In this document: one piece after another, positions 1,750-26,860 of the stretch | Layout of the letters: each line of letters begins with the position of its first letter | Numbering within the stretch: the stretch's first letter is position 1 | Virus genome (UHGV): UHGV-1828728 | Origin: a virus | Reading direction: 5' to 3' (one strand) | Length of the DNA stretch: 39,345 bases | Made by a program: the position numbers and the translations under genes | The notes under the pieces: model-generated | The model's input: the letters and a program-made list of their open reading frames with translations, nothing else | Databases searched by the model: none | What the model was told of the DNA's origin: nothing

Positions 1750-4480
<2,731 letters not shown>

Positions 4481-4514
4481 TTAATTAGAATAATTCGCAT
4501 CGTGTTTGAACGGA

Positions 4515-4535
4515 AATTTAACACTAGTCACTTGT
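4515..4535 (-). promoter_or_regulatory. candidate late-type promoter for prt inside a 21-bp palindromic element
   Basis: Minus strand reads ACAAGTGAC, 6-nt spacer, TAAATT, about 40 nt upstream of the prt start; + strand shows palindrome TTAACA-CTAGTCACT-TGTTAA. Confidence 0.25.
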
Positions 4536-4547
4536 TAAGGATTACCA

Positions 4548-7500
4548 ATGAACAAGCTATCTATGGGGGTGTTTCGCTGTTCAAGTGTCAGCGAAATATT
4601 GAAATACATTAGTGCAATAACATCTCACCGAGCGCCGATTAGATACGGCGTGGAAAAGGTGGAAGGCAAAAGCTATGACCGACTACGCCGGGAGGCGAAT
4701 CAGAAGGCGATAGATTTGCTTAATTCGCTGGTGGACGGCGCGACACTGACAGATGAACAGCGCCAGATCCTGGCTGGGTACACCGGCGAAGGCGGCATTG
4801 GCGGGTCCGTCTCCGAATATTACACACCAAAGCCGATCGCTGAAGGTGTCTGGGAGATCATGAAGCTCTACGGCGCGGACGTAGGTAACACTCTGGAACC
4901 ATCGGCGGGAACCGGCGTTTTTAATGAGACAAAACCGGTTGGTACGGTGATGACCGCGACTGAGATCAGCAGTGTTTCCGGTCGTATAAACCAGCTGTTG
5001 CACCCGGAAGACAGCGTACAGATTTCTCCGTTCGAACAACTGGCTGTAAGCACGCCTAACGATTCATTCGACCATGTTGTGGGTAACGTTCCGTTCGGTG
5101 GTCGTGATAACACACGCAACATCGATAAGCCTTACGCAGAAGAAACGGACATGGGTTCTTACTTCATGCTCCGCATGCTGGACAAGATAAAGCCAGGCGG
5201 ATTCATGTGCGTGATTGTGCCGCCGTCCATTGTTTCAGGTTCAAACATGAAGCGGTTACGCCTGCGCCTATCACGGAAAGCTGAATTTCTTGGTGCCCAC
5301 CGCTTGCCTACCGGTACTTTTGACGCAAACGGGACCAGTACAGTTGTTGATGTGGTGCTGATGCGCAAACATCCGGCAGAGATGGCTGAGAAAATCCCCC
5401 TGGTGGATGAAAGCACTCTCGAATCGGCAAATGTGCTTTGGCCAACGTTTATTTCTGGCAAGTGGTTTGAAAAGGACGGCCGCCGGTTTGTTCATGGCAC
5501 CCAGGAAAAGGGCTTCCAGGGGCGTATTGAGGTTCGTGCCGACGGTCAGATTGATAACCAGGCTCTTAAAGCGAAGCTGATTCATCGTTTCGAAAGCCGT
5601 ATCGACTGGTCTTTGCTCGATATGGCTGAACCGTCACCGACCGCAGACGTTGTTGGTGAAGGGGAAATGCGCCTGATTAATGGCGTATGGCAAAAATATG
5701 CTGGTGGTCGCTGGATTGAAGCTGATGCCGGGAAGGAACTTAAGATCGATGCTGCCAGTTATGGCGCGGATAGCTGGGAGGCTCTTCAGCGTAACCTGAC
5801 TACAACAGAAGGCCGTCTCGGCATGACATTTACCCAGATGGCAAATGTCCGCGATAAGTACACCACATCAATCAGCGACGATATGGTGCAGCTGGTGGAC
5901 TGGATTAACAGCCAGCCTGAAAAATACCGTGAACGCTTGTATCGCGGGGCGATGATTGGCCGGATGTTAATTGAATATCAGGACATGAAGGCCGCCGGGC
6001 ATAGTGCTGAACAAATCGAACAGCAGCGCCTTTCTCTGGTATCCCGTTTGCAGGCAGAGATTGACCGTTTTGGTAACCCCGGTCGCGGTCCGATAGCGAA
6101 ATTGTCGGGGAGCGGTGCGCGCGCCTGGTTTGCTTTCCGTGGTGCAATTAAGCTGGATGGCACTATTTCTGACGAGCTGACAGGGAAGCTGGTTACGCAT
6201 GATTCCAGCGCAAGTTATGACTCCACCAGCTATCAGGACACCCTGCGTTATCTCTATAGCGATCTCACCCGCGATCCAATCCAGCTCGATGATTTCCGCC
6301 TTGCGTTTACCGGCGAACTGCCAGCCAGTGATGAAGAGTTGCTTAATTTATTGGCCAGCACCCCCAGCGGCGACATTAACGAGATAGTGGCTCCAAAACA
6401 GGAATTCCTCGCCACACTCCCCGACGGTCCAGTAAAGAACAACGTCCTTAATCAGCTGGCAGCTATCGAAGAGAAGCGCATCAAGACGCCAGCAGAGAAT
6501 ATCCGGTTTAAGCTCAATAGCCGTTGGTTCGACCGTTCCGTCATTCTGGAATTTTTGCAGGAAAACGGCTATCCGGATCTGCGCTATGTGCAGTCAGTGC
6601 AGCTGGAAGGCGACGAAATGGTTTCTGACACCTATCACGGTGGTGATGGTCTGTTCGTCGGGCACCGATACGGTGTCGTCCAGCGCAAGGATAAAGAAAC
6701 AGGTGAGATTCGCTACGAGTGGGACCGTAAATCAGGTGAAAACGCGACCGGGTTCCCGGCACAGCTGGAAAAGTATCTCAATGGTGCGCGTATCGGTGGC
6801 AAAGATAGCGCGACGGCGAACGGCTACCGCGAGCAGATGGCACTGCTTGAGGACCAGTTCAATAAGTGGATCAAGACGCACGATCGCTACGATGAGCTGG
6901 TTGCCAAATACAACGATGTGTTCAATAGCAATATCCCGTATGAACACTCTGGCGATCCGCTTGGGTTGAAGGGATTAAGCGGTAAGCGCCAGCCATTTGA
7001 TTACCAGAATAGCGAGGTGCGCCGACTGTCCGAAGATGGGCGCGGCATCCTGGGCTTCGGCACCGGGCTGGGTAAAACCACGACCGCGCTGGCGCTTGAG
7101 GCGTTCAACTATGAGAACGGTCGCTCCACCCGTACTGCGTATGTAGTGCCTAAATCAGTGCTGGAAAATTGGTATTACGAAGCAAAAGAATTCCTGAGTG
7201 AAGAGGCATTCAGTAACTACTTGTTCGTCGGTCTTGATGTGCTGATGGATGGCGATCAGATTCGCCAGGTGCCGGTGCTCAATGAGAACGGTAAACCTGT
7301 TCTTGGTACTGATGGCACTCCAGTTATGCGCGATGCTCTTAAGCTGGCAGATGAAGCCACTATCACGGCGCGGATGAACGCGATCCCGCACTCAAATTAC
7401 CGTGCAGTCGTGTTTACCAAAGAACAATACGCCCGCATTCCGCTACGTGATGACACCGTAGATGAGCATGCACAAGACATGCTTTATGACTTCGTTGCCG

Positions 7501-10500
7501 CCGGGCGCGTAGCCAGCGCAATGGACTCCGACTCCCACCGCAAAGAGGCGGCGCGTCGCCGGGTATTGTCGGAGTATTCAGATACCGGTACCGAAAAAGC
7601 AGAGAAGTATCCGTACTTTGAGGATATGGGCTTCGACAGCGTGATTGCTGACGAAGGCCACAACTACCGCAATAGCTATAAAAATGGTCGCGAAGCGTCA
7701 CAGCTGGCCTATCTGCCCACCAGCGCGGTGGCGCAATCGGCGCGAGATATGGCAATCAAAAACGCGTACTTGATGAAAAAGAATGGCGGGCGCGGACCGG
7801 TTCTCCTGACTGCAACACCAGTCGTTAACACCCCGATCGATGCATACAACATGCTTTCTCATGTTCTGCCGAAGGAATACTGGCAGAAGATGGGGATCTA
7901 CAGTCCTGATGACTTCGTAAAATTCTTCGGCAAGACCAGGCTGGAAACGGTACAGAAAATCAGCGGCGAAGTTGAAGAAAAAATGGCGCTGGTGGGTTTT
8001 GAAAACCTTGATGCGCTGCGCGGCATATTCCATCGCTGGACAACGCTTAAAACAGCGGAAGACGTTAAGGATACCGTGGAGATCCCGGAACTGGACGAAC
8101 ACCAGCAGGATGCACCACTTACTGAAGAACAACTGGCGGCGTATGAAGAATTGCGTCAGCAGGCGGAAGCGGCGGCCAAAGCCAACAATGGTGTAACGAC
8201 CTCGGTCAATGAAGACGGCGTGATTGAGCACGAGAAAGCCCGTCCGATCTTCTCAATAATCAGGGATATGGACCGCGTATGTACTGACATGGACCTGTAC
8301 TATCGCCGGATCACCTATCGTTTCCTGCCGGAGTACGCCGATGCGGTGCAGCAGCTGGCAGACAGTTTGCCTAAACAAGCCACCAGCGAAGACGACGACA
8401 GTGATGATTCAATCACGCAGCAATCGCAATACTCCCTGATAGATAAGGGCGAGTTTATTCAGTTGCAGGTTCCGGAAGCGTTCGAGCAGGAAGTGAATAA
8501 GCGCCTGGCCAGGTTTGGCATTGACGAACAGACCGTAACTCACCCCGTTACGCCCAAATACGCGAAGCTGATTGCCACGCTGAAGGAGTTTTTCCCGGAA
8601 GGGAAGCAAATCATCTTCACCGATGAAAAAACGCAGCACCAGAAGCTCAAGCGCATTATCTGCAATGCTCTTAACCTTGAACCTTCAAAGGTGGGGATAC
8701 TGAATGCTCAGACGGTTGCCGAGGCAGGTAAAACCGGTAAGAAACTGAAAGCGGTTAAACCGCCGAAAGAGTTACCGGATGAACCAACAGATGCACAGAT
8801 AGCGAAATACAACGAGCAAATGGCTCTGTATGACGCCTATATCGCGCAGCAAAATGAAATGTCGTTGGGCGGTCTGGAAAAGATTGCAGCCGACTTCCAG
8901 GAGGGCCGGACTCCGATCATCATCTGCAACAAAAAGGCAGAGGTGGGTATCAACCTGCATCGAGGAACGACTGACATCCATCATCTGACGTTGCCATGGA
9001 CTCCAGCCAGTATTGCGCAACGAAACGGTCGCGGTGCCCGAGTTGGCTCCAACCGTGCAAGCGTTCGCGTTCACTACTACTGCGGCAAGGGTTCTTTCGA
9101 TGAATACCGACTGAAGACGCTGAAGCGTAAAGCAGGCTGGATCTCCGATATCCTCCGTTCAGATAAGTCAGAAATGGAGAACGCCGACGCCAACGATATG
9201 ATCGAAATGCAGATGTATACCGCTAAGGATGATGGCGAACGTCTGGCAATGATGCAGGTTCAAATGGATAAGGCGAAAGCCGCGCAACGCGCTCGCCAGA
9301 AAGAACAGGCTACTATCGACCTTCAGAACTACATCAAGGCGCAGCACGCAGCTGGTGAGGATGTGGAGGTGCTTACCGCTGAATTAGAGCGAAGCAAAGC
9401 GGAACTTGAAAAGACCACCGCCGACGTCGCCAAATTCAAACAGGCGGTAATGGCCAAAGCAGCTGATAACGCAGACTGGAAAGCCCGCTGGGGTAGCGTC
9501 CATCACACAGACCGTACGTTGTTAGCACAGTATCGCGCGTCGTTGAAAAGCGCCATTCAGCGCAAGGCTAATATCTCTCAGGCCATCTCCCGCTATGAGA
9601 AATTATTGAACCGTACTCAGAAGGCCGCGACGGATATCAAACGCCTGCGCCCGCTGGTGGAGGATGCAATAAATAAAGGCATTCTGGATGTTGATCCTGA
9701 TCTGGTTAACCATGCGAATGAGTTCCTTGTTATCGGCGATCGCTCATGGCGTGTAGGCCAATACTATGATTGTGCCGGTGATATCGTTCGCATTAAGTCG
9801 CTGGACTTCGACAGCCAGCGCGCAGACGTGGAGATCATCTTTACCTTCAAAGGCACCAAATCGGGTAACTGGGATGTGAAGACGCTGGATAAACAGGTTG
9901 ATGTAACTCCCGATGAAGATGCTGTTATGCAGAAAATCAGTGGTGGCGTCTCCATCGCCGGGATTAACGACATCATTTCCTGTGACGATTTCTACCGTTT
10001 CCAGCAGCGCGGCATGATCAAAATCACTGACTCATACGGCGTTCAGACTACAGAGTCAGGCTATAGCATCGATTTTGTTGGTACCTATACGGACCCACTG
10101 AAGCATGCGGTTTACCCGGATCGCCGTGACGGCGCGCTGAAGTCGTCAATTGCAAAATGGGTGCTTGGTATGATGTCGGAAGGGAATAACCGCCAGATCC
10201 GTTCGGCAGAAACATTCCTGGTTGAACTGTTTGGCTCCAATTATGGCGATGTAATCGCGTCATACGGAGATACGCTATCCCCTGAAGCAATTCAGGAGAA
10301 AATAGCGGATGCGATCGCCAGAATGCCGGAAAAAACAAGCCAGGGGGCTACTCGTAACGGGGATTCTGAACTTGAAGTCACCAATGCCATTTTCGGTACC
10401 AATGAGTTCCGGGCGTCAGATTATGAGATCACCACAGCACAGTTTGGCACCATTGGCATTTACAGCAATAAAGCCGAGATCAAGCAGGCAATGGACGCAG

Positions 10501-11264
10501 CAAGCGCGCGCATCGCAGCAGAACGGGAAGCCAATCTGAATCATGCAGTCGCCGCGCTGACTCAATCGTGGGTAACAGCAATCAGGGAGGCCGCCACCAC
10601 AGGGAAAATCACACCTGCAATAGCGGATGTCGTAAACGACGGCTCTAAATTTATGGATGCCTATCAAATGGATGCGGTGAAGTTGCCATCAGCCTATGGT
10701 CAACTCAGCTATCGCATGACCTACAACCTGGTATCAATGTTTTCCGACCTTGCCATCCTTGGGCTGGTGGATCTTAACGAGGTTACGCCGGAATTGCTCA
10801 GCATGCGCAAGAATCATGTGGAGATATTGCAGAGAATTAACACGGTTCTTGCCGGGCGCACCGATGAAGAGAAACAGGCCGACGCTGATCGGATAAACCT
10901 AGCCCTTGGCAACATCACGGAGGAAGAGATTGCCGCCAGAAACGAGAAACAAGAAGAGTTATCATCAATACAGGGTGATGCCACCAGCATAGCTCAGTCT
11001 CTTGGTCTGAATTATCGCGTATCCACCGCCGACCTGAAGATGATGTACGCACCAAAATTCGCCGCTGGCGAGGTATTTGGGCTTCAGGAAGCCTCAGGCA
11101 TGAAAGGCGTTCTTTTCCGTGCGAAAGACGCAATCAAGGCGAAATTCGGCGCTCGCTGGCTGCCAGCGAAGGCGAAGAACAGCGATTTCCCGGGTAACTG
11201 GTGGATTATCGAGACAAAACACAACGTGGCGGACGTTCTGGCCGTCATCCAACAATACGCATAA
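4548..11264 (+). CDS. darB: DarB-like antirestriction protein (methyltransferase-helicase fusion)
   Basis: 2238-aa ORF with ATG and AAGGA RBS. N-terminal region has an N6-adenine methyltransferase-like motif (VGNVPFGG); central region has SF2 helicase motifs (GFGTGLGKTT Walker A, VIADEGHNYRN DEGH box). Size and architecture match P1 DarB from memory. Confidence 0.85.
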   Translation: MNKLSMGVFRCSSVSEILKYISAITSHRAPIRYGVEKVEGKSYDRLRREANQKAIDLLNSLVDGATLTDEQRQILAGYTGEGGIGGSVSEYYTPKPIAEGVWEIMKLYGADVGNTLEPSAGTGVFNETKPVGTVMTATEISSVSGRINQLLHPEDSVQISPFEQLAVSTPNDSFDHVVGNVPFGGRDNTRNIDKPYAEETDMGSYFMLRMLDKIKPGGFMCVIVPPSIVSGSNMKRLRLRLSRKAEFLGAHRLPTGTFDANGTSTVVDVVLMRKHPAEMAEKIPLVDESTLESANVLWPTFISGKWFEKDGRRFVHGTQEKGFQGRIEVRADGQIDNQALKAKLIHRFESRIDWSLLDMAEPSPTADVVGEGEMRLINGVWQKYAGGRWIEADAGKELKIDAASYGADSWEALQRNLTTTEGRLGMTFTQMANVRDKYTTSISDDMVQLVDWINSQPEKYRERLYRGAMIGRMLIEYQDMKAAGHSAEQIEQQRLSLVSRLQAEIDRFGNPGRGPIAKLSGSGARAWFAFRGAIKLDGTISDELTGKLVTHDSSASYDSTSYQDTLRYLYSDLTRDPIQLDDFRLAFTGELPASDEELLNLLASTPSGDINEIVAPKQEFLATLPDGPVKNNVLNQLAAIEEKRIKTPAENIRFKLNSRWFDRSVILEFLQENGYPDLRYVQSVQLEGDEMVSDTYHGGDGLFVGHRYGVVQRKDKETGEIRYEWDRKSGENATGFPAQLEKYLNGARIGGKDSATANGYREQMALLEDQFNKWIKTHDRYDELVAKYNDVFNSNIPYEHSGDPLGLKGLSGKRQPFDYQNSEVRRLSEDGRGILGFGTGLGKTTTALALEAFNYENGRSTRTAYVVPKSVLENWYYEAKEFLSEEAFSNYLFVGLDVLMDGDQIRQVPVLNENGKPVLGTDGTPVMRDALKLADEATITARMNAIPHSNYRAVVFTKEQYARIPLRDDTVDEHAQDMLYDFVAAGRVASAMDSDSHRKEAARRRVLSEYSDTGTEKAEKYPYFEDMGFDSVIADEGHNYRNSYKNGREASQLAYLPTSAVAQSARDMAIKNAYLMKKNGGRGPVLLTATPVVNTPIDAYNMLSHVLPKEYWQKMGIYSPDDFVKFFGKTRLETVQKISGEVEEKMALVGFENLDALRGIFHRWTTLKTAEDVKDTVEIPELDEHQQDAPLTEEQLAAYEELRQQAEAAAKANNGVTTSVNEDGVIEHEKARPIFSIIRDMDRVCTDMDLYYRRITYRFLPEYADAVQQLADSLPKQATSEDDDSDDSITQQSQYSLIDKGEFIQLQVPEAFEQEVNKRLARFGIDEQTVTHPVTPKYAKLIATLKEFFPEGKQIIFTDEKTQHQKLKRIICNALNLEPSKVGILNAQTVAEAGKTGKKLKAVKPPKELPDEPTDAQIAKYNEQMALYDAYIAQQNEMSLGGLEKIAADFQEGRTPIIICNKKAEVGINLHRGTTDIHHLTLPWTPASIAQRNGRGARVGSNRASVRVHYYCGKGSFDEYRLKTLKRKAGWISDILRSDKSEMENADANDMIEMQMYTAKDDGERLAMMQVQMDKAKAAQRARQKEQATIDLQNYIKAQHAAGEDVEVLTAELERSKAELEKTTADVAKFKQAVMAKAADNADWKARWGSVHHTDRTLLAQYRASLKSAIQRKANISQAISRYEKLLNRTQKAATDIKRLRPLVEDAINKGILDVDPDLVNHANEFLVIGDRSWRVGQYYDCAGDIVRIKSLDFDSQRADVEIIFTFKGTKSGNWDVKTLDKQVDVTPDEDAVMQKISGGVSIAGINDIISCDDFYRFQQRGMIKITDSYGVQTTESGYSIDFVGTYTDPLKHAVYPDRRDGALKSSIAKWVLGMMSEGNNRQIRSAETFLVELFGSNYGDVIASYGDTLSPEAIQEKIADAIARMPEKTSQGATRNGDSELEVTNAIFGTNEFRASDYEITTAQFGTIGIYSNKAEIKQAMDAASARIAAEREANLNHAVAALTQSWVTAIREAATTGKITPAIADVVNDGSKFMDAYQMDAVKLPSAYGQLSYRMTYNLVSMFSDLAILGLVDLNEVTPELLSMRKNHVEILQRINTVLAGRTDEEKQADADRINLALGNITEEEIAARNEKQEELSSIQGDATSIAQSLGLNYRVSTADLKMMYAPKFAAGEVFGLQEASGMKGVLFRAKDAIKAKFGARWLPAKAKNSDFPGNWWIIETKHNVADVLAVIQQYA

Positions 11265-11297
11265 CAGGAGCGCCCGGTTCGCCGGGCGTCGCATAAT

Positions 11298-11738
11298 ATG
11301 GCCACACTATCTGATACAATAAAACCGAATAAAACATATCTTGAGGCGGTACTCCGTACAGCGTTGTTAGGAAAGACAGAAGACGAATACGTTGATTTCT
11401 TCCTGTCAGGGCTACGCGGGCGATTACTGAAAAATCCCCGCCTGTACCGCAGCTATGGTCCATACTGGCCGGAAATTAAAAAATTATTACTGGAGCGCGG
11501 TTATGGTAATTTCGGTCGTCTCGTTGACCGTGACGTTCGCAAAATTTACCGTTATGACCGCCCGGCGCTAACACTCATAGCCGCGACGCTCTACAGCCAG
11601 GAGCGTTTTGATAATGGTCAGATATACTCAGCCTGGCATTTACTGCCAGTGCCTGAAGAAGTTGACGACCAGGACTATGAGTTTGAGTCTTACGATTTGG
11701 AAGTTGAAGCCTTGGCACAGGCTGGAGAGAAAACTTGA
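11298..11738 (+). CDS. ulx: Ulx-like protein (downstream of darB)
   Basis: 146-aa ORF directly after darB in the same orientation; named by P1 synteny (darB-ulx-lxc) only. No SD seen before the ATG. Confidence 0.5.
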   Translation: MATLSDTIKPNKTYLEAVLRTALLGKTEDEYVDFFLSGLRGRLLKNPRLYRSYGPYWPEIKKLLLERGYGNFGRLVDRDVRKIYRYDRPALTLIAATLYSQERFDNGQIYSAWHLLPVPEEVDDQDYEFESYDLEVEALAQAGEKT

Positions 11739-11983
11739 AAAAGCGATACTACACAGTAAAGCATGGGACGCTACGAGCATTACAAGAGTTTGCTGATAAG
11801 CATAACGTTGAGGTGCGCAGGGAAGGGGGAAGTAAAGCTCTGCGCATGTACCGCCCGGACGGGAAATGGCGTACGGTCGTCGATTTCAAAACTAACAGCG
11901 TTCCCCAGGGCGTCCGCGACCGGGCATTCGAAGAATGGGAGCAAATCATCATAGATAATGCATTGCTCCTGAATGCTGATTAA
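11735..11983 (+). CDS. lxc: Lxc-like small protein (C1 co-repressor in P1)
   Basis: 82-aa ORF with TTG start overlapping the ulx stop (TTGA); position and size fit P1 lxc from memory. Confidence 0.45.
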   Translation: MKKRYYTVKHGTLRALQEFADKHNVEVRREGGSKALRMYRPDGKWRTVVDFKTNSVPQGVRDRAFEEWEQIIIDNALLLNAD

Positions 11984-11987
11984 GTTT

Positions 11988-12020
11988 GTCTAGCCCGGTT
12001 AATACCGGGCTGGTTTAGAC
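11988..12020. terminator. hairpin terminator at the lxc / cassette junction
   Basis: Imperfect hairpin GTCTAGCCCGG-TTAATA-CCGGGCTGGTTTAGAC between convergent genes; T-richness after it is only moderate. Confidence 0.45.
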
Positions 12021-12041
12021 ATCTTAAGTGGGTGTTAATTT

Positions 12042-12551
12042 TTAATTATGGTTAATCATATCTAACAGTATTTTTAGCTTCCTGCATGTGTTATCAATAT
12101 CTTTACATAATATGACATCAAGGATGTTTGGTAGTCCTAATACCATATGAGAAATGAAACCCTCGCCAACTTGTAGATTATGGGTAGTCTCATCTGGATT
12201 CACGTATTCAATGGTTTTAGTTTTATTTATCCCATAATCTTTATAACAGATGATTACAGGAATGTTCTTCTGTTCAGCAATCTGCAACTCTATTCCTAGC
12301 CCTGTTGATGGAAAACTACATTCTGCAATTATTACATCAGATTTCTCAACCATATCTCTGTCCCAAATGTAACAAAGTCTAGATTTGTTACTTTCAGGGC
12401 GCTTTGATAATTCTGGGTCACTATTTATCAAAGCATATTTTACGTTGTTATTTTGAGATAAACCTTTTGCAAGGCTGTGAATCCAATTACTGTACTCATG
12501 GAAAATTTCCCTTGGAACATGAGTTAAAGCGCATGCGATATATATATTCAT
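12042..12551 (-). CDS. nucleoside 2-deoxyribosyltransferase-like (N-glycosidase fold) protein, cassette gene B
   Basis: 169 aa; N-terminal MNIYIACAL and internal DVIIAECSFPSTGLGIELQIAEQKNIPVI resemble the NDT/Rcl family strand and catalytic-Glu motif (GLGMELGYA in Lactobacillus NDT, from memory). ATG overlaps the stop of gene A (TAATG). AT-rich. Confidence 0.75.
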   Translation of the reverse strand: MNIYIACALTHVPREIFHEYSNWIHSLAKGLSQNNNVKYALINSDPELSKRPESNKSRLCYIWDRDMVEKSDVIIAECSFPSTGLGIELQIAEQKNIPVIICYKDYGINKTKTIEYVNPDETTHNLQVGEGFISHMVLGLPNILDVILCKDIDNTCRKLKILLDMINHN

Positions 12552-13591
12552 TAAGAAGCAGACCTTACGTTTGGGATAAGAAATTGGTGTCCAGTAATTT
12601 CAGATGAAATTGCATCTATAAACTGTGACGGAGATTGTTGAATAAATTCAGCAATAATCCAGTTTTCTTTTTCATTTAGTAACTGTCTTAGCTTAAGTGG
12701 GTCATACCGACATAGCTCACTTAATCGATGCATAGCTGCTAGGGTTATAACCAATGGCGATATTGAAACAGAAGTATGCTCAGATTGATTGTTTTTACGT
12801 TTGAGATACCAAAGAGTCTCTGCGCCATTGATATAGTAAAGATTTCTTCTTATTTTTTGATGAAATTCAGTTAATTGCGGCATGTTGGACGATTGATTTT
12901 CATTAAAATCAAGTAATGATTCTACTGATTTTATTTTGTACTTTTCTCTTTCAAACAATTCGAACGCTGGCGGTAGAATGTCGAAAACTGTGTCGAACCG
13001 AAAATCCTTGGATAAAATCGCAGTGAAAAACAGGCTATTGTCTGACTCATTCAAAACGAACTCAGCATCGATCAGTGGAATAAATATATCATCAGTTACA
13101 TCATAAGTAAGGCAATATGTACGATGAATATATGGCAATCCAGAAAAAAGGTTTTTTATATTGTACACCCCCTCATGAGAGGTGCCGTCAATATATTTTG
13201 AAAAAGACGGAAGTATACCCTCATTTTTTATTTTTACTTTTATATCAGATAAGTTATCAATTTGGGCTGCATTTTCACCCCTAGCAACACCATGATGCTG
13301 TTTGAAGTTTATATTGCGAGATGAAAGTAACGCCTTTACTGCATTCATGAATGAATAATAGTGCAAAAGTGGGGCTGATTGGTTGGGTAAACCATTGGCC
13401 GCCTGATTAAATACTTTTGCTTGCTCCCAATAAAAAAGAGCCTCATCTTTTTCGTTTCGCTTTAACCAGAGTTCGACAAAATCCCAATGACTGTATGTAA
13501 GTACATTCCTTGCGGTTAGGTCAGGGTTTAATGATGCTTTATGAGGCTTCATGACCTTGTTCCTAATTTTCAGCGGCTTAATATTCATCAT
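12551..13591 (-). CDS. hypothetical protein, cassette gene A (no recognisable domain)
   Basis: 346-aa ORF with tandem ATG start, GGAGG SD 9 nt upstream, sigma70-like promoter further upstream; no catalytic motif identifiable by eye. Confidence 0.75.
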   Translation of the reverse strand: MMNIKPLKIRNKVMKPHKASLNPDLTARNVLTYSHWDFVELWLKRNEKDEALFYWEQAKVFNQAANGLPNQSAPLLHYYSFMNAVKALLSSRNINFKQHHGVARGENAAQIDNLSDIKVKIKNEGILPSFSKYIDGTSHEGVYNIKNLFSGLPYIHRTYCLTYDVTDDIFIPLIDAEFVLNESDNSLFFTAILSKDFRFDTVFDILPPAFELFEREKYKIKSVESLLDFNENQSSNMPQLTEFHQKIRRNLYYINGAETLWYLKRKNNQSEHTSVSISPLVITLAAMHRLSELCRYDPLKLRQLLNEKENWIIAEFIQQSPSQFIDAISSEITGHQFLIPNVRSAS

Positions 13592-13620
13592 TGTAATAAT
13601 CCTCCACCCAAAGTTACTAG

Positions 13621-13649
13621 ATTGTAAAATATATATTTTTGTTCCACAA
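13621..13649 (-). promoter_or_regulatory. sigma70-like promoter of the AT-rich cassette
   Basis: Minus strand: -35 TTGTGG (13644-13649), 17-nt spacer, -10 TACAAT (13621-13626), about 30 nt upstream of the gene A ATG; no C1 operator-like sequence seen here. Confidence 0.45.
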
Positions 13650-13681
13650 CAAAAATCTCTATTGGCTACTGACGTAATTAA

Positions 13682-14323
13682 TTATAAATAGTTTTCTTTG
13701 CCGGTAAGTAAGCCTTGAGGAACTCGCTTGTCGGCTAGACATTGGGTTCCGCGAATTATGTTAATCAGAGGGCTTAGTAACGATGGTTCCTGGCGGGCCT
13801 CAACTTCTCCAGCCATTGCCCTGATGTAGTCGGCGCTTGCAACGTTGTTATATTCCGTTGCGAAGCAGCATAACAACGACAGAACGTGCTCTGTCGTTAT
13901 TTCGCTCCAGTTGATGTTGAAAAATTCATCGCCTTTTTTGTCGTGTTCGGAATCGAAGATGCTTTGGTGGAGGATGTATTTGCCGGATTCTTTGCGCGGT
14001 AACTTGATCGCTTTCTGGCGTTCCAGCTCCTTGTAAATCTGCATTGCTTCAATTAGTACCGGCCTGCCGTTCATGAAGGGATCGCGCAACCTTACACGCT
14101 GGCCAACTCGACCCGTAATAAAGCTGTTTTCCTCTTCCACCAGCACGATAAAACCCTTTTCCTCTTTTTCTCGCAATTCGCGCAGCAGCTGGAGTTCCAT
14201 ATCGCGGCGGCGTTCAGGGTAGCTGGTCCGCTCAGCCATTATCAGCTCATTGTTGATCCATGCGGCAGTCATTGACGCCGGTTTGCCGACGCTCATCGAA
14301 ACAACGCATATTTTCTTATCCAT
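13682..14323 (-). CDS. mat: Mat-like protein (P1 backbone gene adjacent to ref)
   Basis: 213-aa ORF from ATG 14323 (AGGGG SD; the track start 14350 is GTG); normal GC; sits next to ref as mat does in P1. Name by synteny only. Confidence 0.5.
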   Translation of the reverse strand: MDKKICVVSMSVGKPASMTAAWINNELIMAERTSYPERRRDMELQLLRELREKEEKGFIVLVEEENSFITGRVGQRVRLRDPFMNGRPVLIEAMQIYKELERQKAIKLPRKESGKYILHQSIFDSEHDKKGDEFFNINWSEITTEHVLSLLCCFATEYNNVASADYIRAMAGEVEARQEPSLLSPLINIIRGTQCLADKRVPQGLLTGKENYL

Positions 14324-14511
14324 AGCGCCCCTACAAAAAAGAAAAGCCACCAGCGGCGGCTTAGCAATACAACTGAAGGTAGCGCCCGGTACTCAGACTG
14401 TGCCGTCCATGGAATATTTGAAAAGGGATCCATCCGTACCGGGCATGTGATGATTCTGACTGAAGTCACTTGTCAGTTGTCAATTATTTCAGATTAAAAA
14501 TAATATATTTA

Positions 14512-15072
14512 TTAGTGCATGCTGTTTGCCATCTCATAGGCGTCAGCCAGCAACTCCATCTCTGACTTGTTCAGCAAGGTGAATTCTTTCTTGCCTCCAA
14601 CCACACCATCGGCATGAACAGGGACCAGCCAGGGGTATTTTTCTCTTACTTCAGCCGGTGCTGCATGCTGGTGGTGCCATCTACAAAGTGGCAATTGCTT
14701 TTTGTGACAACCAGGCGCGGTACGACCGGAGATATGGTGCAGAGACACCTCTTCAGATATTACTCCATGCATATAGCAGGCAATGCAGGGGAGAGCGCCA
14801 AGAGCATTGGCTATGCGCCGCTCCTCCGCCGTCGGTGTTCGTCCCTTCAAGCCACGAGATTTTATTTTTACCGCGCTTTTCCGCGTTTTGCTGGCTGGTG
14901 GGCGCTCTTTCTGTTTAGCGATACGGCGGTCGATAGTATTCCGCATTTTCTGATATTGAGATTCTCGCCAGGCCGGATCAGCCAACTTCTCCCGTTGCCG
15001 AGCGATCGCTCGTTCTCTGGCTGCCTTCTGCCACTTACGGTGCTGTTCAATTTTTTGTTCGATTGTTTTCAT
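14512..15072 (-). CDS. ref: Ref (recombination enhancement function, HNH-type endonuclease)
   Basis: 186-aa product starting MKTIEQKIEQHRKWQ..., Cys/His-rich C-terminal half; matches P1 Ref from memory. The track ORF extends upstream to 15177 but Ref begins at the internal ATG. Confidence 0.85.
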   Translation of the reverse strand: MKTIEQKIEQHRKWQKAARERAIARQREKLADPAWRESQYQKMRNTIDRRIAKQKERPPASKTRKSAVKIKSRGLKGRTPTAEERRIANALGALPCIACYMHGVISEEVSLHHISGRTAPGCHKKQLPLCRWHHQHAAPAEVREKYPWLVPVHADGVVGGKKEFTLLNKSEMELLADAYEMANSMH

Positions 15073-15077
15073 ATGGC

Positions 15078-15103
15078 AAAAAAAAGGCGGCCTGATGGCC
15101 GCC
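15078..15103 (-). terminator. terminator-like hairpin in the ref leader (possible attenuator)
   Basis: On the minus strand, stem GGCGGCC/GGCCGCC with loop ATCA followed by T8, ending 5 nt before the ref ATG. Confidence 0.4.
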
Positions 15104-15163
15104 AATGATGTCAAGGAGTTAAGTAATGGCAACGTCTTCGTAGTTGACAAAAACTGCGGCTCA

Positions 15164-15187
15164 ATTATAGCAATCAATTAGAGCAAT
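15164..15187 (-). promoter_or_regulatory. ref promoter with overlapping C1 operator
   Basis: Minus strand ATTGCTCTAATTGATTGC TATAAT: operator core (15171-15187) immediately upstream of a perfect -10 TATAAT (15164-15169). Confidence 0.5.
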
Positions 15188-15247
15188 GGTAGAGATTTTG
15201 TTTATCGCGAATCACATTTTTTCACTTCAGTACCTGTGTGCTATACT

Positions 15248-15321
15248 CCTTCTTGATTGATTGGATGCGGAATACAAACCCGCTCTTTTGTGCAGCCTGG
15301 CTCCTTGCCAGGCTTTTTTTT
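15248..15321 (+). ncRNA. candidate small RNA (promoter plus intrinsic terminator, no ORF)
   Basis: Extended -10 TGcTATACT (15239-15247), about 45 nt containing GATTGATTGG, then hairpin AGCCTGGC-TCCTT-GCCAGGCT (15294-15314) and T8. No coding potential on + strand. Existence as an RNA is inference. Confidence 0.25.
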
Positions 15322-15631
15322 ATTTCATCATGGAAGCTGTTAATGCTTTGGACCTTGCTGAACTGATTGAGAGGGCTTTGTCAACGTGCCCCAAAAATTC
15401 GCCAAACTCAGACATCACTTTAGCAAAACCGCGCCGTGCTTCTTCCTCGGTGGCATTCATCACGAAATGTTCAGCACTACGCATACTTCTGACAGGGAAC
15501 GCAACGGATATTGAGTCAATATCAGGCATTCTATCGCTCAGCTTTACAGTGACAATGACGGCTGGCGACTGAATATTAGTGCTCACTGACAGCACTACAT
15601 ATTTTCCGTCGATGTTGAAATTCTTTCTCAT
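15320..15631 (-). CDS. cra: Cra-like protein (cre-associated)
   Basis: 103-aa ORF between cre and ref with ATG and GGTGA SD; C1 operator-like site just upstream. Name by synteny. Confidence 0.6.
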   Translation of the reverse strand: MRKNFNIDGKYVVLSVSTNIQSPAVIVTVKLSDRMPDIDSISVAFPVRSMRSAEHFVMNATEEEARRGFAKVMSEFGEFLGHVDKALSISSARSKALTASMMK

Positions 15632-15647
15632 ATGTCACCATAAATAT

Positions 15648-15664
15648 CAAAGAATTAGAGCAAT
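15648..15664 (-). promoter_or_regulatory. C1 operator-like site upstream of cra
   Basis: Core ATTGCTCTAAT (reverse complement of 15654-15664); 13/17 to consensus. Confidence 0.45.
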
Positions 15665-15681
15665 CATTTACGCGTTAATGG

Positions 15682-16713
15682 CTAATCGCCATCTTCCAGC
15701 AGGCGCACCATTGCCCCTGTTTCACTATCCAGGTTACGGATATAGTTCATGACAATATTTACGTTGGTCCAGCCACCAGCTTGCATGATCTCCGGTATTG
15801 AAACTCCGGCGCGGGCCATATCTCGCGCGGCTCCGACACGGGCACTGTGTCCAGACCAGGCCAGGTACCTCTGACCAGAGTCATCCTTAGCCCCGTAAAT
15901 CAATCGGTGAGTTGCTTCAAAAATCCCTTCCAGGGCGCGAGTTGATAGCTGGCTGGTGGATGATGGCGAGGCAACACCATTTTTTCTGACCCGGCAAAAC
16001 AAGTAGTTATTCGGATCATCAGCCACACCAGAGACGGAAATCCATCGCTCGACCAGTTTAGTTACCCCCAGGCTAAGTGCCTTCTCTACACCTGCGGTGC
16101 TAACCAGCGTTTTCGTTCTGCCAATATGGATTAACATTCTCCCACCGTCAGTACGTGAGATATCTTTAACCCTGATCCTGGCAATTTCGGCTATACGTAA
16201 CAGGGTGTTATAAGCAATCCCCAGAAATGCCAGATTCCGTATATCCTGGCAGCGATCGCTATTTCCCATGAGTGAACGAACCTGGTCGAAATCAGTGCGT
16301 TCGAACGCCAGCGCCTGTTTTGCACGCTCACCGGCATCAACGTTTTCTTTTCGGATCCGTCGCATGACCAGTGAAACAGCATTGCTGTCACTTGGTCGTG
16401 GCAGCCCGGACCGACGATGAAGCATATTTAGCTGGCCCAAATGTTGCTGGATAGTTTTCACTGCCAGACCGCGCGCCTGAAGATATAGAAGATAATCGCG
16501 AACATCTTCAGGTTCTGCGGGAAACCATTTCCGGTTATTCAACTTGCACCATGCCGCCCATGACCGGCAAACGGACAGAAGCATTTTCCAGGTATGCTCA
16601 GAAAACGCCTGGCGATCCCTGAACATGTCCATCAGGTTCTTGCGAACCTCATCACTCGTTGCATCGACCGGTAATGCAGGCAAATTTTGGTGTACGGTCA
16701 GTAAATTGGACAT
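15682..16713 (-). CDS. cre: Cre tyrosine recombinase
   Basis: 343-aa product beginning MSNLLTVHQNLPALPVDATSDEVRKNLMDMFRDRQAFSEHTWKMLLSVCRSWAAWCKLNNRKWFPAEPEDVRDYLLYLQARGLAVKTIQQHLGQLNMLHRRSGLPRPSDSNAVSLVMRRIRKENVDAGERAKQALAFERTDFDQVRSLM and ending NIVMNYIRNLDSETGAMVRLLEDGD; matches canonical Cre from memory apart from a few substitutions. Confidence 0.97.
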   Translation of the reverse strand: MSNLLTVHQNLPALPVDATSDEVRKNLMDMFRDRQAFSEHTWKMLLSVCRSWAAWCKLNNRKWFPAEPEDVRDYLLYLQARGLAVKTIQQHLGQLNMLHRRSGLPRPSDSNAVSLVMRRIRKENVDAGERAKQALAFERTDFDQVRSLMGNSDRCQDIRNLAFLGIAYNTLLRIAEIARIRVKDISRTDGGRMLIHIGRTKTLVSTAGVEKALSLGVTKLVERWISVSGVADDPNNYLFCRVRKNGVASPSSTSQLSTRALEGIFEATHRLIYGAKDDSGQRYLAWSGHSARVGAARDMARAGVSIPEIMQAGGWTNVNIVMNYIRNLDSETGAMVRLLEDGD

Positions 16714-16720
16714 TTAACAC

Positions 16721-16942
16721 TCAGATAATGGTTTTAAGTAAAGTGTACAGGATCGGCTCTGCCTTTACCTGTTTATGGTTCTCGTCATAGAAACGCCAGC
16801 GACCGCGCGTGCGTTCTATTTTCTCTTCACCGCGCGATAATGACAGTTGACAACTATCACGATCAAACCCTTTTGCCCGCCAGTAACCACGGTTTTTCTC
16901 AAGCTCAATATGAGTGGACACTTTAGCAGCTGAATATCCCAT
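16721..16942 (-). CDS. hypothetical 73-aa protein between loxP and cre
   Basis: ATG with GAGGTG SD at 5-nt spacing; stop 8 nt before the cre ATG; lies in what is normally treated as the cre promoter region. Confidence 0.45.
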   Translation of the reverse strand: MGYSAAKVSTHIELEKNRGYWRAKGFDRDSCQLSLSRGEEKIERTRGRWRFYDENHKQVKAEPILYTLLKTII

Positions 16943-17040
16943 TTTTCACCTCTGATTGATTGGTGGTGCTAAGTGCGCTACGCGAAATCTGGAGCACTAA
17001 CACTGCCAACATTTCGCAGATTTTACGTAGCGCAACCTTG

Positions 17041-17117
17041 ATCAAATGATCAAGTGATCACTATTTGACCTGATAAGGTATTGAACTGTATGGATTTACA
17101 GGTAAATTGATCATGTT
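17041..17117. promoter_or_regulatory. GATC (Dam site) cluster next to loxP
   Basis: GATC at 17041, 17049 and 17057 within 20 bp plus another at 17111; P1 cre transcription is described as Dam-methylation sensitive (from memory). Confidence 0.4.
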
Positions 17118-17131
17118 CAATAACCCTTAAG

Positions 17132-17165
17132 ATAACTTCGTATAATGTATGCTATACGAAGTTAT
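17132..17165. other. loxP: loxP recombination site
   Basis: Exact ATAACTTCGTATA-ATGTATGC-TATACGAAGTTAT (13-bp inverted repeats, 8-bp spacer). Confidence 0.97.
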
Positions 17166-17208
17166 TAGGTCCGAAGAGGAGTTTACGTCCAGTTGCGCAT
17201 AAAAATCA

Positions 17209-17225
17209 AGAATTATTAGAGCAAT
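17209..17225 (-). promoter_or_regulatory. C1 operator (immC)
   Basis: AGAATTATTAGAGCAAT, 15/17 to consensus in reverse orientation. Confidence 0.5.
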
Positions 17226-17285
17226 AAATTTTGAGAGAAAAATCCCACTCCACCAGCCAAAAACTGGATTGTTTTTCATAGTTGT

Positions 17286-17314
17286 TTGACAATTGCTCTA
17301 ATAAATTATAGTTT
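17286..17314 (+). promoter_or_regulatory. immC promoter with embedded C1 operator
   Basis: TTGACA (17286-17291) followed by ATTGCTCTAATAAATTA (17292-17308, 16/17 to consensus) overlapping a TATAGT/TAGTTT -10; reads toward coi-c1. Confidence 0.55.
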
Positions 17315-17546
17315 TGCCGCCGTTTCGTAATACGACTTTGGATTCACTATTTAATGTGTCTTCAGCGTTGTAGAGCGGCTCAGAAGGAAATGAGCAAACA
17401 GGGAAACCTTATACAACGGCATTACAGCTATGCATTGCTCATCTTACACACAGCGCAATGTTGTTAGATTACCCCAGCATGGATCATGGGTGAAACAGTA
17501 GGTCAGAGCTTCAGGCTCTGTGTTGTCAATACAGTGAGGCATAATT

Positions 17547-17756
17547 ATGGCTTTCATTCCACCAACCATCGACGACGTTAGACATTGCTCTAACGCTTTA
17601 TCTGTAGACCCCGCCGAAACCGACGCTGCCCGCGCCATTGCTGAACACTACTCAAAGATATCCAATCAGGAGTACCGCATCACCCAAGACGACCTGGATG
17701 ATCTCACTGACACAATCGAATATCTCATGGCCACTAACCAGCCAGACTCACAATAA
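17547..17756 (+). CDS. coi: Coi (C1 inactivator)
   Basis: 69-aa ORF immediately upstream of c1 with ATG and GTGAGG SD; size and position match P1 coi. Confidence 0.8.
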   Translation: MAFIPPTIDDVRHCSNALSVDPAETDAARAIAEHYSKISNQEYRITQDDLDDLTDTIEYLMATNQPDSQ

Positions 17757-17772
17757 ATGCACTAATAAATCT
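17756..17772 (+). promoter_or_regulatory. degenerate C1 operator-like site between coi and c1
   Basis: AATGCACTAATAAATCT, 14/17 to consensus. Confidence 0.35.
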
Positions 17773-17866
17773 ATTATTTTCGTTGGATCCTTCTATAATG
17801 GTGGCCAACAACTCCCAGTGTAATCCGCTGTGAGTTGTTGGCCATGTCAATTCTGGAGGAGGATCA

Positions 17867-18718
17867 ATGATAAATTATGTCTACGGCGAACAACTGTACC
17901 AGGAGTTCGTCAGCTTCAGGGATCTCTTTCTAAAAAAAGCTGTTGCACGCGCCCAACACGTTGATGCCGCCAGCGACGGTCGTCCTGTTCGCCCGGTTGT
18001 CGTTCTGCCGTTCAAAGAAACGGACAGCATTCAGGCTGAAATTGATAAATGGACTTTAATGGCGCGGGAACTGGAACAGTACCCAGACCTCAATATCCCA
18101 AAGACTATTTTATATCCAGTGCCTAACATCCTTCGCGGTGTGCGTAAGGTTACGACTTATCAGACAGAAGCTGTGAACAGCGTCAACATGACCGCTGGCC
18201 GCATTATTCATCTGATTGATAAGGACATTCGCATCCAGAAAAGCGCAGGGATCAATGAGCACAGTGCGAAATACATAGAGAACCTGGAAGCAACAAAAGA
18301 GCTAATGAAGCAGTACCCGGAGGATGAAAAATTCCGTATGCGCGTACACGGCTTTAGCGAAACAATGCTGCGCGTCCATTACATTTCTAGTAGCCCTAAC
18401 TACAATGATGGTAAATCAGTTAGTTACCATGTGCCGCTATGTGGTGTGTTTATCTGCGATGAAACTCTCCGTGATGGAATTATCATCAACGGTGAATTCG
18501 AGAAAGCAAAATTTAGCCTTTATGACTCTATAGAACCGATCATCTGCGACCGCTGGCCGCAGGCAAAAATATATCGCCTGGCAGATATTGAAAATGTAAA
18601 AAAACAAATTGCCATCACTCGCGAAGAGAAAAAGGTCAAATCAGCCGCATCAGTTACGCGCAGCCGTAAAACTAAGAAGGGGCAGCCAGTAAACGACAAC
18701 CCCGAAAGCGCACAATAG
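17867..18718 (+). CDS. c1: C1 repressor of lysis
   Basis: 283-aa product beginning MINYVYGEQLYQEFVSFRDLFLKK; matches P1 C1 in sequence and length from memory; GGAGGAGG SD. Confidence 0.95.
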   Translation: MINYVYGEQLYQEFVSFRDLFLKKAVARAQHVDAASDGRPVRPVVVLPFKETDSIQAEIDKWTLMARELEQYPDLNIPKTILYPVPNILRGVRKVTTYQTEAVNSVNMTAGRIIHLIDKDIRIQKSAGINEHSAKYIENLEATKELMKQYPEDEKFRMRVHGFSETMLRVHYISSSPNYNDGKSVSYHVPLCGVFICDETLRDGIIINGEFEKAKFSLYDSIEPIICDRWPQAKIYRLADIENVKKQIAITREEKKVKSAASVTRSRKTKKGQPVNDNPESAQ

Positions 18719-25375: not shown

Positions 25376-26026
25376 TCAGCTTTCGTTGGCATGGTCCACC
25401 TCATGCTTTTCAGCCACCAGCGGCAATAAAGCCCTGGCCATCTTATGAACCAATAGTGCATCAATAATGCCAAGCGTATGCCCCGGCTTAATGTTTAATG
25501 CCGCCTCAAGGTGACACCTTTCCAGGTCACTTTTCTCGGCTTGTTTATGATGATCTGGTGTAATAACGTCGCCCAAAACACGGCTAATTCTTTCTCGTAA
25601 TTGCTGGGTGCCAGCACACTTGATCGCTGTATCGTGGAGACGGTTAACCAGTTCGCGATAAACATGCGGCTTAATGCGGATACGTTCACCGGTGACGCCC
25701 TTTCCTGGCGCTGGCACCGAACTATCCGGAATATCCGGATAGTTGCCAGCCTCGTAAGCTACCCGCAGCCAGTGCATGAATGTTTCAGTGGACACACAAC
25801 CACAGTCCACATCGATTTTTCCGCGTTGCTGTTCCAGCCAATGCTCAAAATTCAATCTACACGTATTACTTTCATGTTGCTCTTTTTGTCTCAAGGCCAG
25901 CATCTGCTGGGCTATTTCCAATACTTCATCTGCCGTATATCCAGCACCGTGACCATACATTTCGATACGGGAAATAATCTCTGATATGCGCTCTTCAGTG
26001 ATTCTGGTCATTTCTTTTTGCGCCAT
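25376..26026 (-). CDS. hypothetical protein
   Basis: 216-aa ORF; ATG overlaps the stop of the upstream membrane-protein gene. Confidence 0.6.
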   Translation of the reverse strand: MAQKEMTRITEERISEIISRIEMYGHGAGYTADEVLEIAQQMLALRQKEQHESNTCRLNFEHWLEQQRGKIDVDCGCVSTETFMHWLRVAYEAGNYPDIPDSSVPAPGKGVTGERIRIKPHVYRELVNRLHDTAIKCAGTQQLRERISRVLGDVITPDHHKQAEKSDLERCHLEAALNIKPGHTLGIIDALLVHKMARALLPLVAEKHEVDHANES

Positions 26027-26382
26027 TTCTTTTCACATTCCTTAGTCCATTCTTCAATGTTCATTTTGGCAATATCAGTCATTCCATCACCTAAGAAATA
26101 CTTTTTCCGGTATGTCTTGCACTTAAACCACACTACAACAGCCACCAGCCAGAAAATAAAAGGCCATACAGCAATACCAACGACAGCCGCGATAAAGCCC
26201 AATAGCCATAAATGAAGCTCTCCAACTTCTGTTTCCGGCAATATTCTTAAAGAATTAAACAGCAGGATGAACGAATGGTCGTATGCATTGGCAGTATAAG
26301 ACATGCAATCCATATAATTAAAGTCATAGCCTGCGGCTGCCGCCCATAATGGGCGGTCAAGAAAATGTTTTAGTGTCATCAT
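26008..26382 (-). CDS. hypothetical membrane protein
   Basis: 124 aa with a long hydrophobic segment (LWLLGFIAAVVGIAVWPFIFWLVAVVVWF) and lysine-rich C-terminus. Confidence 0.55.
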   Translation of the reverse strand: MMTLKHFLDRPLWAAAAGYDFNYMDCMSYTANAYDHSFILLFNSLRILPETEVGELHLWLLGFIAAVVGIAVWPFIFWLVAVVVWFKCKTYRKKYFLGDGMTDIAKMNIEEWTKECEKKWRKKK

Positions 26383-26388
26383 ATAAAT

Positions 26389-26682
26389 TTAAGGTTCAGA
26401 CCAGTTATCTTCAATAGCAATGCTTAATCTTTGTAGCCATTCTGCTAATTTCAGCATTGCTTCTCTTTCGCTTAAACCACGAGGAAAATCATCAAGCGAA
26501 ATTGTTGGCTTGAATCCCCCGCAATTATCCATTTCAACTGTCAGATTTTGTTCCAGCACGGTATTTCTTACGCGGCTATTGTGCCGGAGCAAATATACTG
26601 AGCGTGATTTATTGGTTTTGTGGTCTAGCTTATATTCGGTAAGTATCATCTGGCTTTTGCCATGATTATTACCTCTCCACAT
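26389..26682 (-). CDS. hypothetical protein
   Basis: 97-aa version from ATG 26682 with GAGGT SD; the track ORF extends to a TTG at 26778. Confidence 0.45.
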   Translation of the reverse strand: MWRGNNHGKSQMILTEYKLDHKTNKSRSVYLLRHNSRVRNTVLEQNLTVEMDNCGGFKPTISLDDFPRGLSEREAMLKLAEWLQRLSIAIEDNWSEP

Positions 26683-26860
26683 ACTTACCTCACTTAATAA
26701 AACAACTCCATGCGTAGTTGATGATTTTTTCCCACGTAATATAAATCTGCACTCCGGCAGTAAAACCAAAGCCAACAATTGCTGAAAAAATCAAAACATT
26801 TACTTTTGACATTATAAATTTTCTCTCGGTGTCGTAGGTGATAGCACCATAATTGATAAT

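Follow-up and report, generated by a model that had tools for sequence, protein, structure and literature searches.

How an anti-restriction gene comes to lie back-to-back with an AT-rich gene cassette, and what that cassette encodes, is the question raised by the interval between the genes lxc and mat in the virus genome UHGV-1828728, a stretch of 39,345 nucleotides (nt) that is referred to below, at its full length, as the window. The window is a P1-like phage-plasmid; a megablast search with positions 4000–16000 as the query aligned it with P1, P7 and about 20 further P1-like phages at 97–98% identity and about 86% query coverage, the minus strand of P1 corresponding to the plus strand of the window. 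It is very likely that the lxc–mat slot is a hotspot of cargo exchange, and the two-gene cargo of the window, which encodes a YaaC family protein and a nucleoside-2-deoxyribosyltransferase (NDT)-like protein, would, with fair confidence from sequence and structure models, be a defence system; the combination of the two, a hotspot slot holding a candidate defence cargo, is regarded with good confidence as the best overall explanation. The anti-restriction genes form a fixed backbone, and no evidence was found that they are functionally tied to the cargo.

Homology between the window and P1 extends to the final base of the lxc stop codon (11983) and begins again with the stop codon of mat, at its first base (13682); between the same points P1 carries mod, IS5 and res, that is, the EcoP1I res-mod genes together with IS5, over 6,281 bp. 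The type III restriction-modification (R-M) system that a preliminary description of this DNA had placed in the same neighbourhood of P1 is thereby located between lxc and mat, and the order given there, in which ulx and lxc are followed by an AT-rich cassette, is borne out by the P1 annotation, by the alignment and by a fall in GC content, from about 0.50 in the flanks to 0.34–0.36 over 12001–13500. The cassette of the window has no match in P1, P7 or any of 50,697 GenBank phage records (megablast and tblastn), and Rfam gives no match at E≤1 over 11000–15000. A C1 operator was looked for in the slot and none was found, so the cargo probably has a promoter of its own from which it is expressed in the lysogen.

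The comparative survey of the slot that had been proposed in the preliminary description shows that its content is far from invariant. IMG/VR was scanned with Lxc, which gave 80 loci, 73 of them with both anchors (lxc and mat); the 73 intervals, together with those of P1 and the window, were sorted into clusters with a minimum identity of 85% and a minimum mutual coverage of 80%, and class representatives were typed with Pfam and PADLOC. The 75 intervals fall into 16 sequence classes and 11 content types, one of which is the empty slot. Among the 73 IMG/VR loci, a set that may contain near-clonal duplicates, the slot holds a SIR2_2 protein in 13 (best model PDC-S25, ThsA-like), a DUF2971 protein in 10 (best model PDC-S31), a RelA/SpoT gene in 9 (CapRel-like; PADLOC PDC-S33, 5e-87), a type III R-M system in 7, a PIN_12 protein in 6 (partial match to PDC-S34), JukA with HTH and Ant genes in 4 (matching JukA), and the YaaC and NDT-like pair in 4, for which no defence model matches. 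The slot is empty in 8, with the lxc and mat stop codons within about 100 bp of each other and one hairpin between them, and cargoes without a defence match, namely a GNAT protein (7), an AraC gene with an EAL gene (4) and a lipoprotein (1), account for the remainder. Cargo that matches a defence family, whether known or candidate (type III R-M, CapRel-like, SIR2, DUF2971, PIN and JukA), is thus present in 49 of the 73. All cargoes are AT-rich (GC 0.32–0.43), and their orientation differs among classes.

The flanks of the slot are mostly 91–100% identical among the relatives, and darB, ulx and lxc are kept at about 98% identity irrespective of the cargo. The earlier picture of a defence and antidefence hotspot in which the cargo is exchanged while DarB is retained therefore stands as far as the varied cargo and the retained DarB are concerned, and has to be narrowed in that only the defence side varies. 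In the IMG/VR classes c4 and c11 the CapRel-like gene lies precisely in the slot; among GenBank phages the interval holds res-mod in P1, P7 and 813R1 and a RelA/SpoT gene in SJ46 and vB_EcoM-673R5, and it is essentially empty in RCS47, as calculated from the spans of megablast alignments. An identical or near-identical copy of the window's cassette (≥95% identity) is found in 85 PLSDB plasmids and in 109 of 5426 complete E. coli genomes. Records of ulx-lxc number 699 in PLSDB and likewise 699 among the E. coli genomes (about 13%), so that roughly 16% of the E. coli P1-like elements (109/699) carry this cassette, the only cargo counted among these 699 records.

Variability at this place is already a published matter: the res-mod region has been described as the low-GC "variable region 1" of P1-like phage-plasmids (PMC9603915), a DefenseFinder survey of P1-like elements listed type III R-M, dGTPase, PrrC and CapRel (bioRxiv 2025.09.12.675607), and an exchange of defence genes among phage-plasmids is reported (PMC10879196). 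In the literature searched, no paper was found in which the lxc–mat junction is defined as a defence hotspot. Most of the interest lies in the uncharacterised YaaC/DNPH1-like cargo. In P1 and P7 the EcoP1I and EcoP7I res-mod genes fill precisely this slot, from the lxc stop codon to that of mat, and are likewise low in GC; they differ in extending over 5.1–6.3 kb in the direction of lxc and in lacking the hairpin, whereas the window's unrelated cargo is a 1.7-kb operon of two genes on the opposite strand. Protection against phages by EcoP1I has been shown in the literature. CapRel is a fused toxin-antitoxin, so that roles in addiction and in defence are not exclusive. CapRel-SJ46, an experimentally validated defence of the P1-like phage SJ46 (PMC9712102), belongs to the RelA/SpoT genes of this interval, yet it is one fused protein that pyrophosphorylates tRNA and is unrelated, in sequence as in fold, to YaaC and to the NDT-like protein. 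The defence hotspots of P2- and P4-type mobile elements similarly combine conserved core flanks with unrelated, AT-rich and fast-swapped anti-phage cargo in close relatives; here, the element is a plasmid prophage, the flanking genes are others, and two 3′ ends converge on the slot.

The flanks suggest how the exchange takes place. Identity to the window was calculated in 500-bp bins, a comparison limited by a same-cargo sample of only three to four loci: over the darB bins (4001–10501) relatives with the same cargo are 95.9–99.2% identical and relatives with other cargo 96.9–98.9%; from about 11000 to 18500 the same-cargo relatives are 98.4–99.9% identical; and over the mat-ref-c8-cre bins (14001–16001) other-cargo relatives fall to 93.9–97.8%. 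Over ref-c8-cre alone, the figures are 93.9–97.6% with other cargo and 98.4–99.5% with the same cargo. Homology to the window's mat begins at nucleotide 1, 11, 32, 61/62, 72, 119, 125 or 133, depending on the cargo class (13682–13815; loci L004–L079), and thus many cargo blocks also replace the C-terminus of Mat; the Mat of the window is 94% identical to that of P1 at the amino-acid level, with the divergence concentrated in the C-terminal ~40 amino acids (aa). The identity pattern and the scattered breakpoints within mat point to homologous recombination in the flanks, by which whole blocks are exchanged, and not to precise site-specific insertion. The 3′ end of the darB-ulx-lxc block meets the 3′ end of the opposite mat-ref-c8-cre block, and the junction holds interchangeable, AT-rich cargo, mostly a single operon and mostly anti-phage, each with its own hairpin on the lxc side. 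As the linkage suggests, such cargo most likely moves as a block between co-resident P1-like elements, the breakpoints lying no more than about 1 kb away on the ulx/lxc side and as far as several kb away on the mat-cre side.

A hairpin at 11988–12020 had been described as shared between the anti-restriction unit and the cassette. Folding confirms that it is real (11987–12021), with a minimum free energy of −24.9 kcal/mol (z −4.0) on the plus strand and −21.2 kcal/mol (z −5.4) on the minus strand, and none of 200 shuffled sequences folded equally well; a terminator scanner missed it because it has no T-run. It is, however, part of the variable block and not of the conserved flank. In 14 of the 16 slot classes, the 55 nt that follow lxc include a hairpin of comparable strength (−12 to −23.5 kcal/mol; windows inside the cargo give −6 to −9 kcal/mol), and its sequence differs from class to class, with a GCCCGG/CCGGGC core common to six classes and present also in empty slots. 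The two classes without a hairpin in the test window are the res-mod class of P1, whose genes share the transcription direction of lxc, and class c7, in which the hairpin lies at the 55-nt edge. The hairpin is probably the terminator of lxc, acting in both directions where the cargo converges on it. The left ends of class c5 (that of the window) and class c10 (GNAT) are alike over about 30 bp despite their differing cargo, which suggests that the hairpin module recombines separately from the cargo.

In the cargo itself, yaaC lies upstream and the gene of the NDT-like protein downstream, both on the minus strand, and the two overlap by 1 nt, an arrangement that identifies them, at the level of sequence, as a translationally coupled operon. 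The YaaC protein matches PF14175 with 157.7 bits against a cutoff of 27 (5.9e-46; model positions 18–307 of 307), and its AlphaFold model, with a predicted local distance difference test (pLDDT) score of 92.6, shows the four-helix, up-and-down core of the HEPN fold with a beta-rich insert of about 170 aa between core helices 2 and 3. The residues H100, G101, H156, R157, R248, H288, R295 and Y296 are conserved across 40 homologues. A sequence search of the PDB with YaaC returned a chance-level match only. The 169-aa protein matches PF05014 at 22.1 bits, below the gathering threshold of 28.8, and is thus a distant relative only. Its model (AlphaFold2, AF2; pLDDT 96.3) has a flavodoxin-like fold, in which the catalytic Glu belongs to an S-x-G-x-G-x-E motif (PSTGLGIELQ, aligned to PSLGVGYELG of DNPH1), the top Foldseek matches are DNPH1, the CMP N-glycosidase BcmB and NDT, each with a probability of 1.00, and D64 and E88 are invariant in 41 homologues of 47–70% identity. 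The DNPH1/Rcl enzymes, which hydrolyse dNMP or 5-hydroxymethyl-dUMP (5-hm-dUMP), and BcmB/MilB are the best fold matches (E about 1e-5, template modelling score 0.6–0.75) and have this motif and an upstream Asp in common with the 169-aa protein; they differ in sequence (14–18% identity), and the 169-aa protein has an extra C-terminal beta-alpha segment and another genomic role. On the minus strand of the leader, a possible −35 element (TTGTGG, 13649–13644), a 17-nt spacer and a −10 element (TACAAT, 13626–13621) are discernible by eye, as is a GGAGG at 13605–13601; this putative promoter is below the threshold of the scanner. An 8-bp inverted repeat, TTTTTGTT-N4-AACAAAAA at 13655–13636, overlaps the putative −35 element and, from its sequence, may be an autoregulatory operator.

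A defence role for this operon is likely, as argued from the folds, from the conservation of the gene pair and from its location in defence islands. YaaC relatives were confirmed in at least 153 of 185,579 genomes (one genome per species) from many phyla, a lower bound because the scan was pattern-based, and in 40 of the best 80 GTDB loci yaaC is followed immediately, on its own strand, by an NDT-like gene, these 40 having YaaC hidden Markov model scores of ≥431 bits. Across phyla the neighbours of the pair include Gabija-like, Pycsar, Dpd/BrxR and AbiTii genes: on an E. coli chromosome the pair lies beside BrxR and a Dpd island, in Chryseobacterium beside a PycTM gene, in Bradyrhizobium beside AAA_15/21 and UvrD genes, and in Kangiella beside AbiTii; in Aeromonas and Myxococcus it is likewise kept as an overlapping or adjacent operon. 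In the prediction table of the DefensePredictor supplement, a 346-aa YaaC family protein of E. coli is called a "putative novel defense gene" with a mean log-odds of 11.0 (PMC13092281), and within its searchable supplementary text YaaC appears in that table only and not among the validated systems. Moreover, NDT-like effectors have precedents: they are found in type II retrons and fused to AbiJ-NTD1 (PMC7736814, PMC3710099).

The E. coli chromosomal copy just mentioned is diverged (L082, 8949–10507; GCA_031463515.1) and lies between an integrase/BrxR gene and the Dpd island (DpdD, PLD and DEAD helicase genes); its NDT-like partner shows about 72% amino-acid identity, and at least two lineages of the cassette are therefore present in E. 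coli. Solitary YaaC genes are found among the loci L124–L171 (e.g., L130, L147, L148 and L160); in one of these cases (L149) the downstream protein is DUF2971-like by eye, and in another (L162) a 525-aa neighbour resembles a DUF262-type nuclease by eye.

Several observations weigh against reading the slot as a defence site and its cargo here as a defence system. Twelve of the 73 slots hold cargo without a defence signature, and the slot is therefore not exclusively for defence; these GNAT (201–202 aa; L006/L004), AraC and EAL (L015) and lipoprotein (135 aa; L024) cargoes may be unrecognised defences or other lysogenic-conversion genes. No family of PADLOC-DB v2.0.0 matches either cargo protein at E≤0.1, NCBIfam and PHROGs have no model for either of them, and YaaC was not found in the 50,697 GenBank phage records. 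The other 40 of the best 80 loci form a lower-scoring group of solitary YaaC genes, so that the partner is not obligatory for the family; no recurrent partner was found beside them, and only hsdM/hsdS genes (type I) and integrases recur. The 40 YaaC homologues have no invariant R…H pair in common with the 4–6 spacing of the HEPN Rx4-6H motif, and RNase activity is therefore doubtful; the lack of a conserved motif of this kind and the ~170-aa insert distinguish YaaC from the HEPN proteins of abortive-infection and toxin-antitoxin systems (AbiD/F/J/U2/V, HEPN-MNT and PrrC/RloC). The main texts of the literature searched held nothing relevant on YaaC with phage or defence terms, and no characterised YaaC protein was found in the searchable literature.

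Two other roles for the cargo are less probable than defence. The pair might be a toxin-antitoxin-type addiction module that stabilises the low-copy plasmid prophage in the manner of phd-doc, as two small, translationally coupled genes on such an element would suggest, and HEPN-fold and NDT-like proteins are both known as toxin domains (PMC3710099); this is nevertheless improbable, for many phyla carry this pair on the chromosome, where it lies inside defence islands, and the other occupants of the slot are mostly defence and not plasmid-stability genes. Still less probable is a metabolic or lysogenic-conversion set for nucleotide salvage or detoxification with no part in phage conflict: the closest solved relatives of the 169-aa protein (DNPH1, NDT and the CMP N-glycosidase) are of a housekeeping type, the YaaC of B. 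subtilis is an uncharacterised chromosomal protein, and some slot cargoes (GNAT, AraC with EAL) appear non-defensive, but the distribution is patchy (153/185,579 species genomes in the pattern-based scan), the neighbours are defence genes or integrases, the GC content is low and the DefensePredictor score is high.

Functional coupling and site-specific movement can be set aside with greater assurance. The physical closeness of darB and the cargo, with a single hairpin between convergent units, might reflect a matched pair of anti-restriction and defence functions co-regulated through that hairpin; this is very unlikely, since darB is about 98% identical to that of the window with or without the same cargo, Dar is present in every P1/D6 element surveyed, the immediate neighbour of the cargo is lxc, a repressor modulator with its own promoters inside ulx in P1, and the cargo is oriented differently among classes. 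As darB identity is the same in same-cargo and other-cargo relatives, the back-to-back position is taken to be architectural, a consequence of two convergent 3′ ends, and not functional. An integron-like exchange with the hairpins as recombination sites, possibly with the aid of Cre, has an equally slight chance of being correct: nearly every cargo begins with a hairpin beside lxc, cre and loxP are about 3.5 kb away and, in comparison with P1, the boundaries fall exactly at stop codons, yet the hairpins have no common sequence beyond the core found in six classes, a second site on the mat side is missing, the right breakpoints scatter over 1–133 nt inside mat, the linkage of the cargo to several kb of flanking backbone is the pattern expected of homologous recombination, and the window has no loxP-like site other than the known one. 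The integron-like cassette was for these reasons (hairpin on the lxc side only, sequence not conserved, scattered mat-side breakpoints) rejected as a candidate.

If the defence reading of the YaaC/NDT-like cargo is followed further, the operon would be a two-component system of the abortive-infection or nucleotide-depletion type, in which the DNPH1/NDT-like enzyme may cleave, through D64 and E88, the N-glycosidic bond of a nucleotide or NAD-like substrate, and the HEPN-fold YaaC protein may act as a sensor, a regulator or a second effector. The specific N-glycosidase mechanism, which is drawn from structure models, is tentative. Similarly speculative is the wider proposal that YaaC as a HEPN-fold sensor and the DNPH1-like N-glycosidase make up an uncharacterised, widely distributed two-component anti-phage system, whose effector would destroy the (deoxy)nucleotide pool (possibly modified nucleotides of phages, such as 5-hydroxymethyl-dCMP, 5-hm-dCMP, or 5-hm-dUMP) or NAD+ and which P1-like elements would spread in E. 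coli and Salmonella through this slot. An NDT-superfamily N-glycosidase domain serves as the toxic arm in type II retrons (Retron-Eco1/Sen2) and in AbiJ-NTD1-NDT fusions (PMC7736814, PMC3710099), as is proposed here; the present system differs in having no reverse transcriptase, multicopy single-stranded DNA or DNA-binding C-terminal domain and in its YaaC/HEPN-fold partner, and none of the PADLOC retron-effector models matches the 169-aa protein at E<0.1. One well-bounded slot that cycles at least 10 cargo types amounts to a compact natural library, which holds validated defences (EcoP1I, CapRel) beside unexplored candidates (the YaaC/NDT-like pair, DUF2971, PIN_12 and the GNAT protein) and, owing to its conserved flanks, is easily mined by polymerase chain reaction or in silico. 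It is also a tractable system for measuring the rate at which defence genes move between co-resident elements, and the YaaC/NDT-like pair is an obvious candidate for experimental validation.

Table. Positions of the slot, its cargo and the flanking P1-like backbone in the window.
Feature	Position	Strand	Remarks and basis
prt (portal)	2762..4471	-	Divergent from darB, left backbone; open reading frame (ORF), P1 annotation, 97.7% nt alignment
darB	4548..11264	+	N6-adenine methyltransferase and superfamily 2 (SF2) helicase fusion; Pfam, P1 DarB alignment
ulx, 146 aa	11298..11738	+	P1 annotation, alignment, ORF; RefSeq product name in P1 "Ulx-like anti-restriction"
lxc, 82 aa	11735..11983	+	C1 repressor modulator; stop codon is left slot edge
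Variable lxc–mat slot, 1,698 bp	11984..13681	.	GC ~0.35; P1 alignment
GC-rich hairpin, core GCCCGG-N-CCGGGC	11987..12021	.	Between convergent lxc and cargo; RNA folding
DNPH1/NDT-like protein, 169 aa, WP_024245513.1	12042..12551	-	Putative N-glycosidase; Pfam, motif, AF2, Foldseek
YaaC family protein, 346 aa, WP_024245512.1	12551..13591	-	Predicted HEPN-fold helical bundle with beta-rich insert
Cargo operon leader, AT-rich	13592..13681	-	Putative; read by eye
mat (maturation control)	13682..14350	-	Stop codon is right slot edge; P1 alignment
ref, c8, cre	14512..16713	-	Right backbone, travels with cargo block
loxP	17132..17165	-	Exact 34-bp match; 3.45 kb from slot

The backbone on the left of the slot shows the synteny of the Dar system of P1, with prt divergent from darB-ulx-lxc, and darB, ulx and lxc are all intact. 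The inclusion of lxc in an antirestriction operon, as first described, is mistaken; by the P1 annotation it encodes a modulator of the C1 co-repressor and is not an anti-restriction gene. The DarB of P1 is virion-borne and shields incoming DNA against type I restriction. The 2238-aa methyltransferase-helicase fusion that had been called DarB-like at 4548–11264 is indeed its orthologue (P1 gp011, ~2,255 aa), carrying the Pfam domains N6_Mtase, Eco57I, SNF2-rel_dom, ResIII and Helicase_C and matching P1 DarB at 2214 of 2255 aa (98%) over its full length, with a single in-frame deletion of 17 aa after residue 606. The missing segment, GIAVSPYGGIVPFARAT (P1 residues 607–623; window region 6363–6366), lies between the methylase and helicase parts; it is absent only from the window among 69 assessable sequences (68 IMG/VR loci and the window), and the deletion is therefore private. 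The Dar system is universal in the P1/D6 elements surveyed (bioRxiv 2025.09.12.675607). Inside the 5′ end of darB, a match to the C1-operator consensus with three mismatches (ATTGCACTAATGTATTT) lies at 4602–4618 on the minus strand; no operator is annotated at the equivalent position in the P1 record, and the window holds 11 matches to the P1 consensus at that level, against 0.15 expected. A second low-GC stretch (0.38–0.39), at 26001–27000, contains small ORFs on the minus strand, one of 124 aa that includes hydrophobic stretches and one of 129 aa, and may mark a further region of the P1 backbone that varies.

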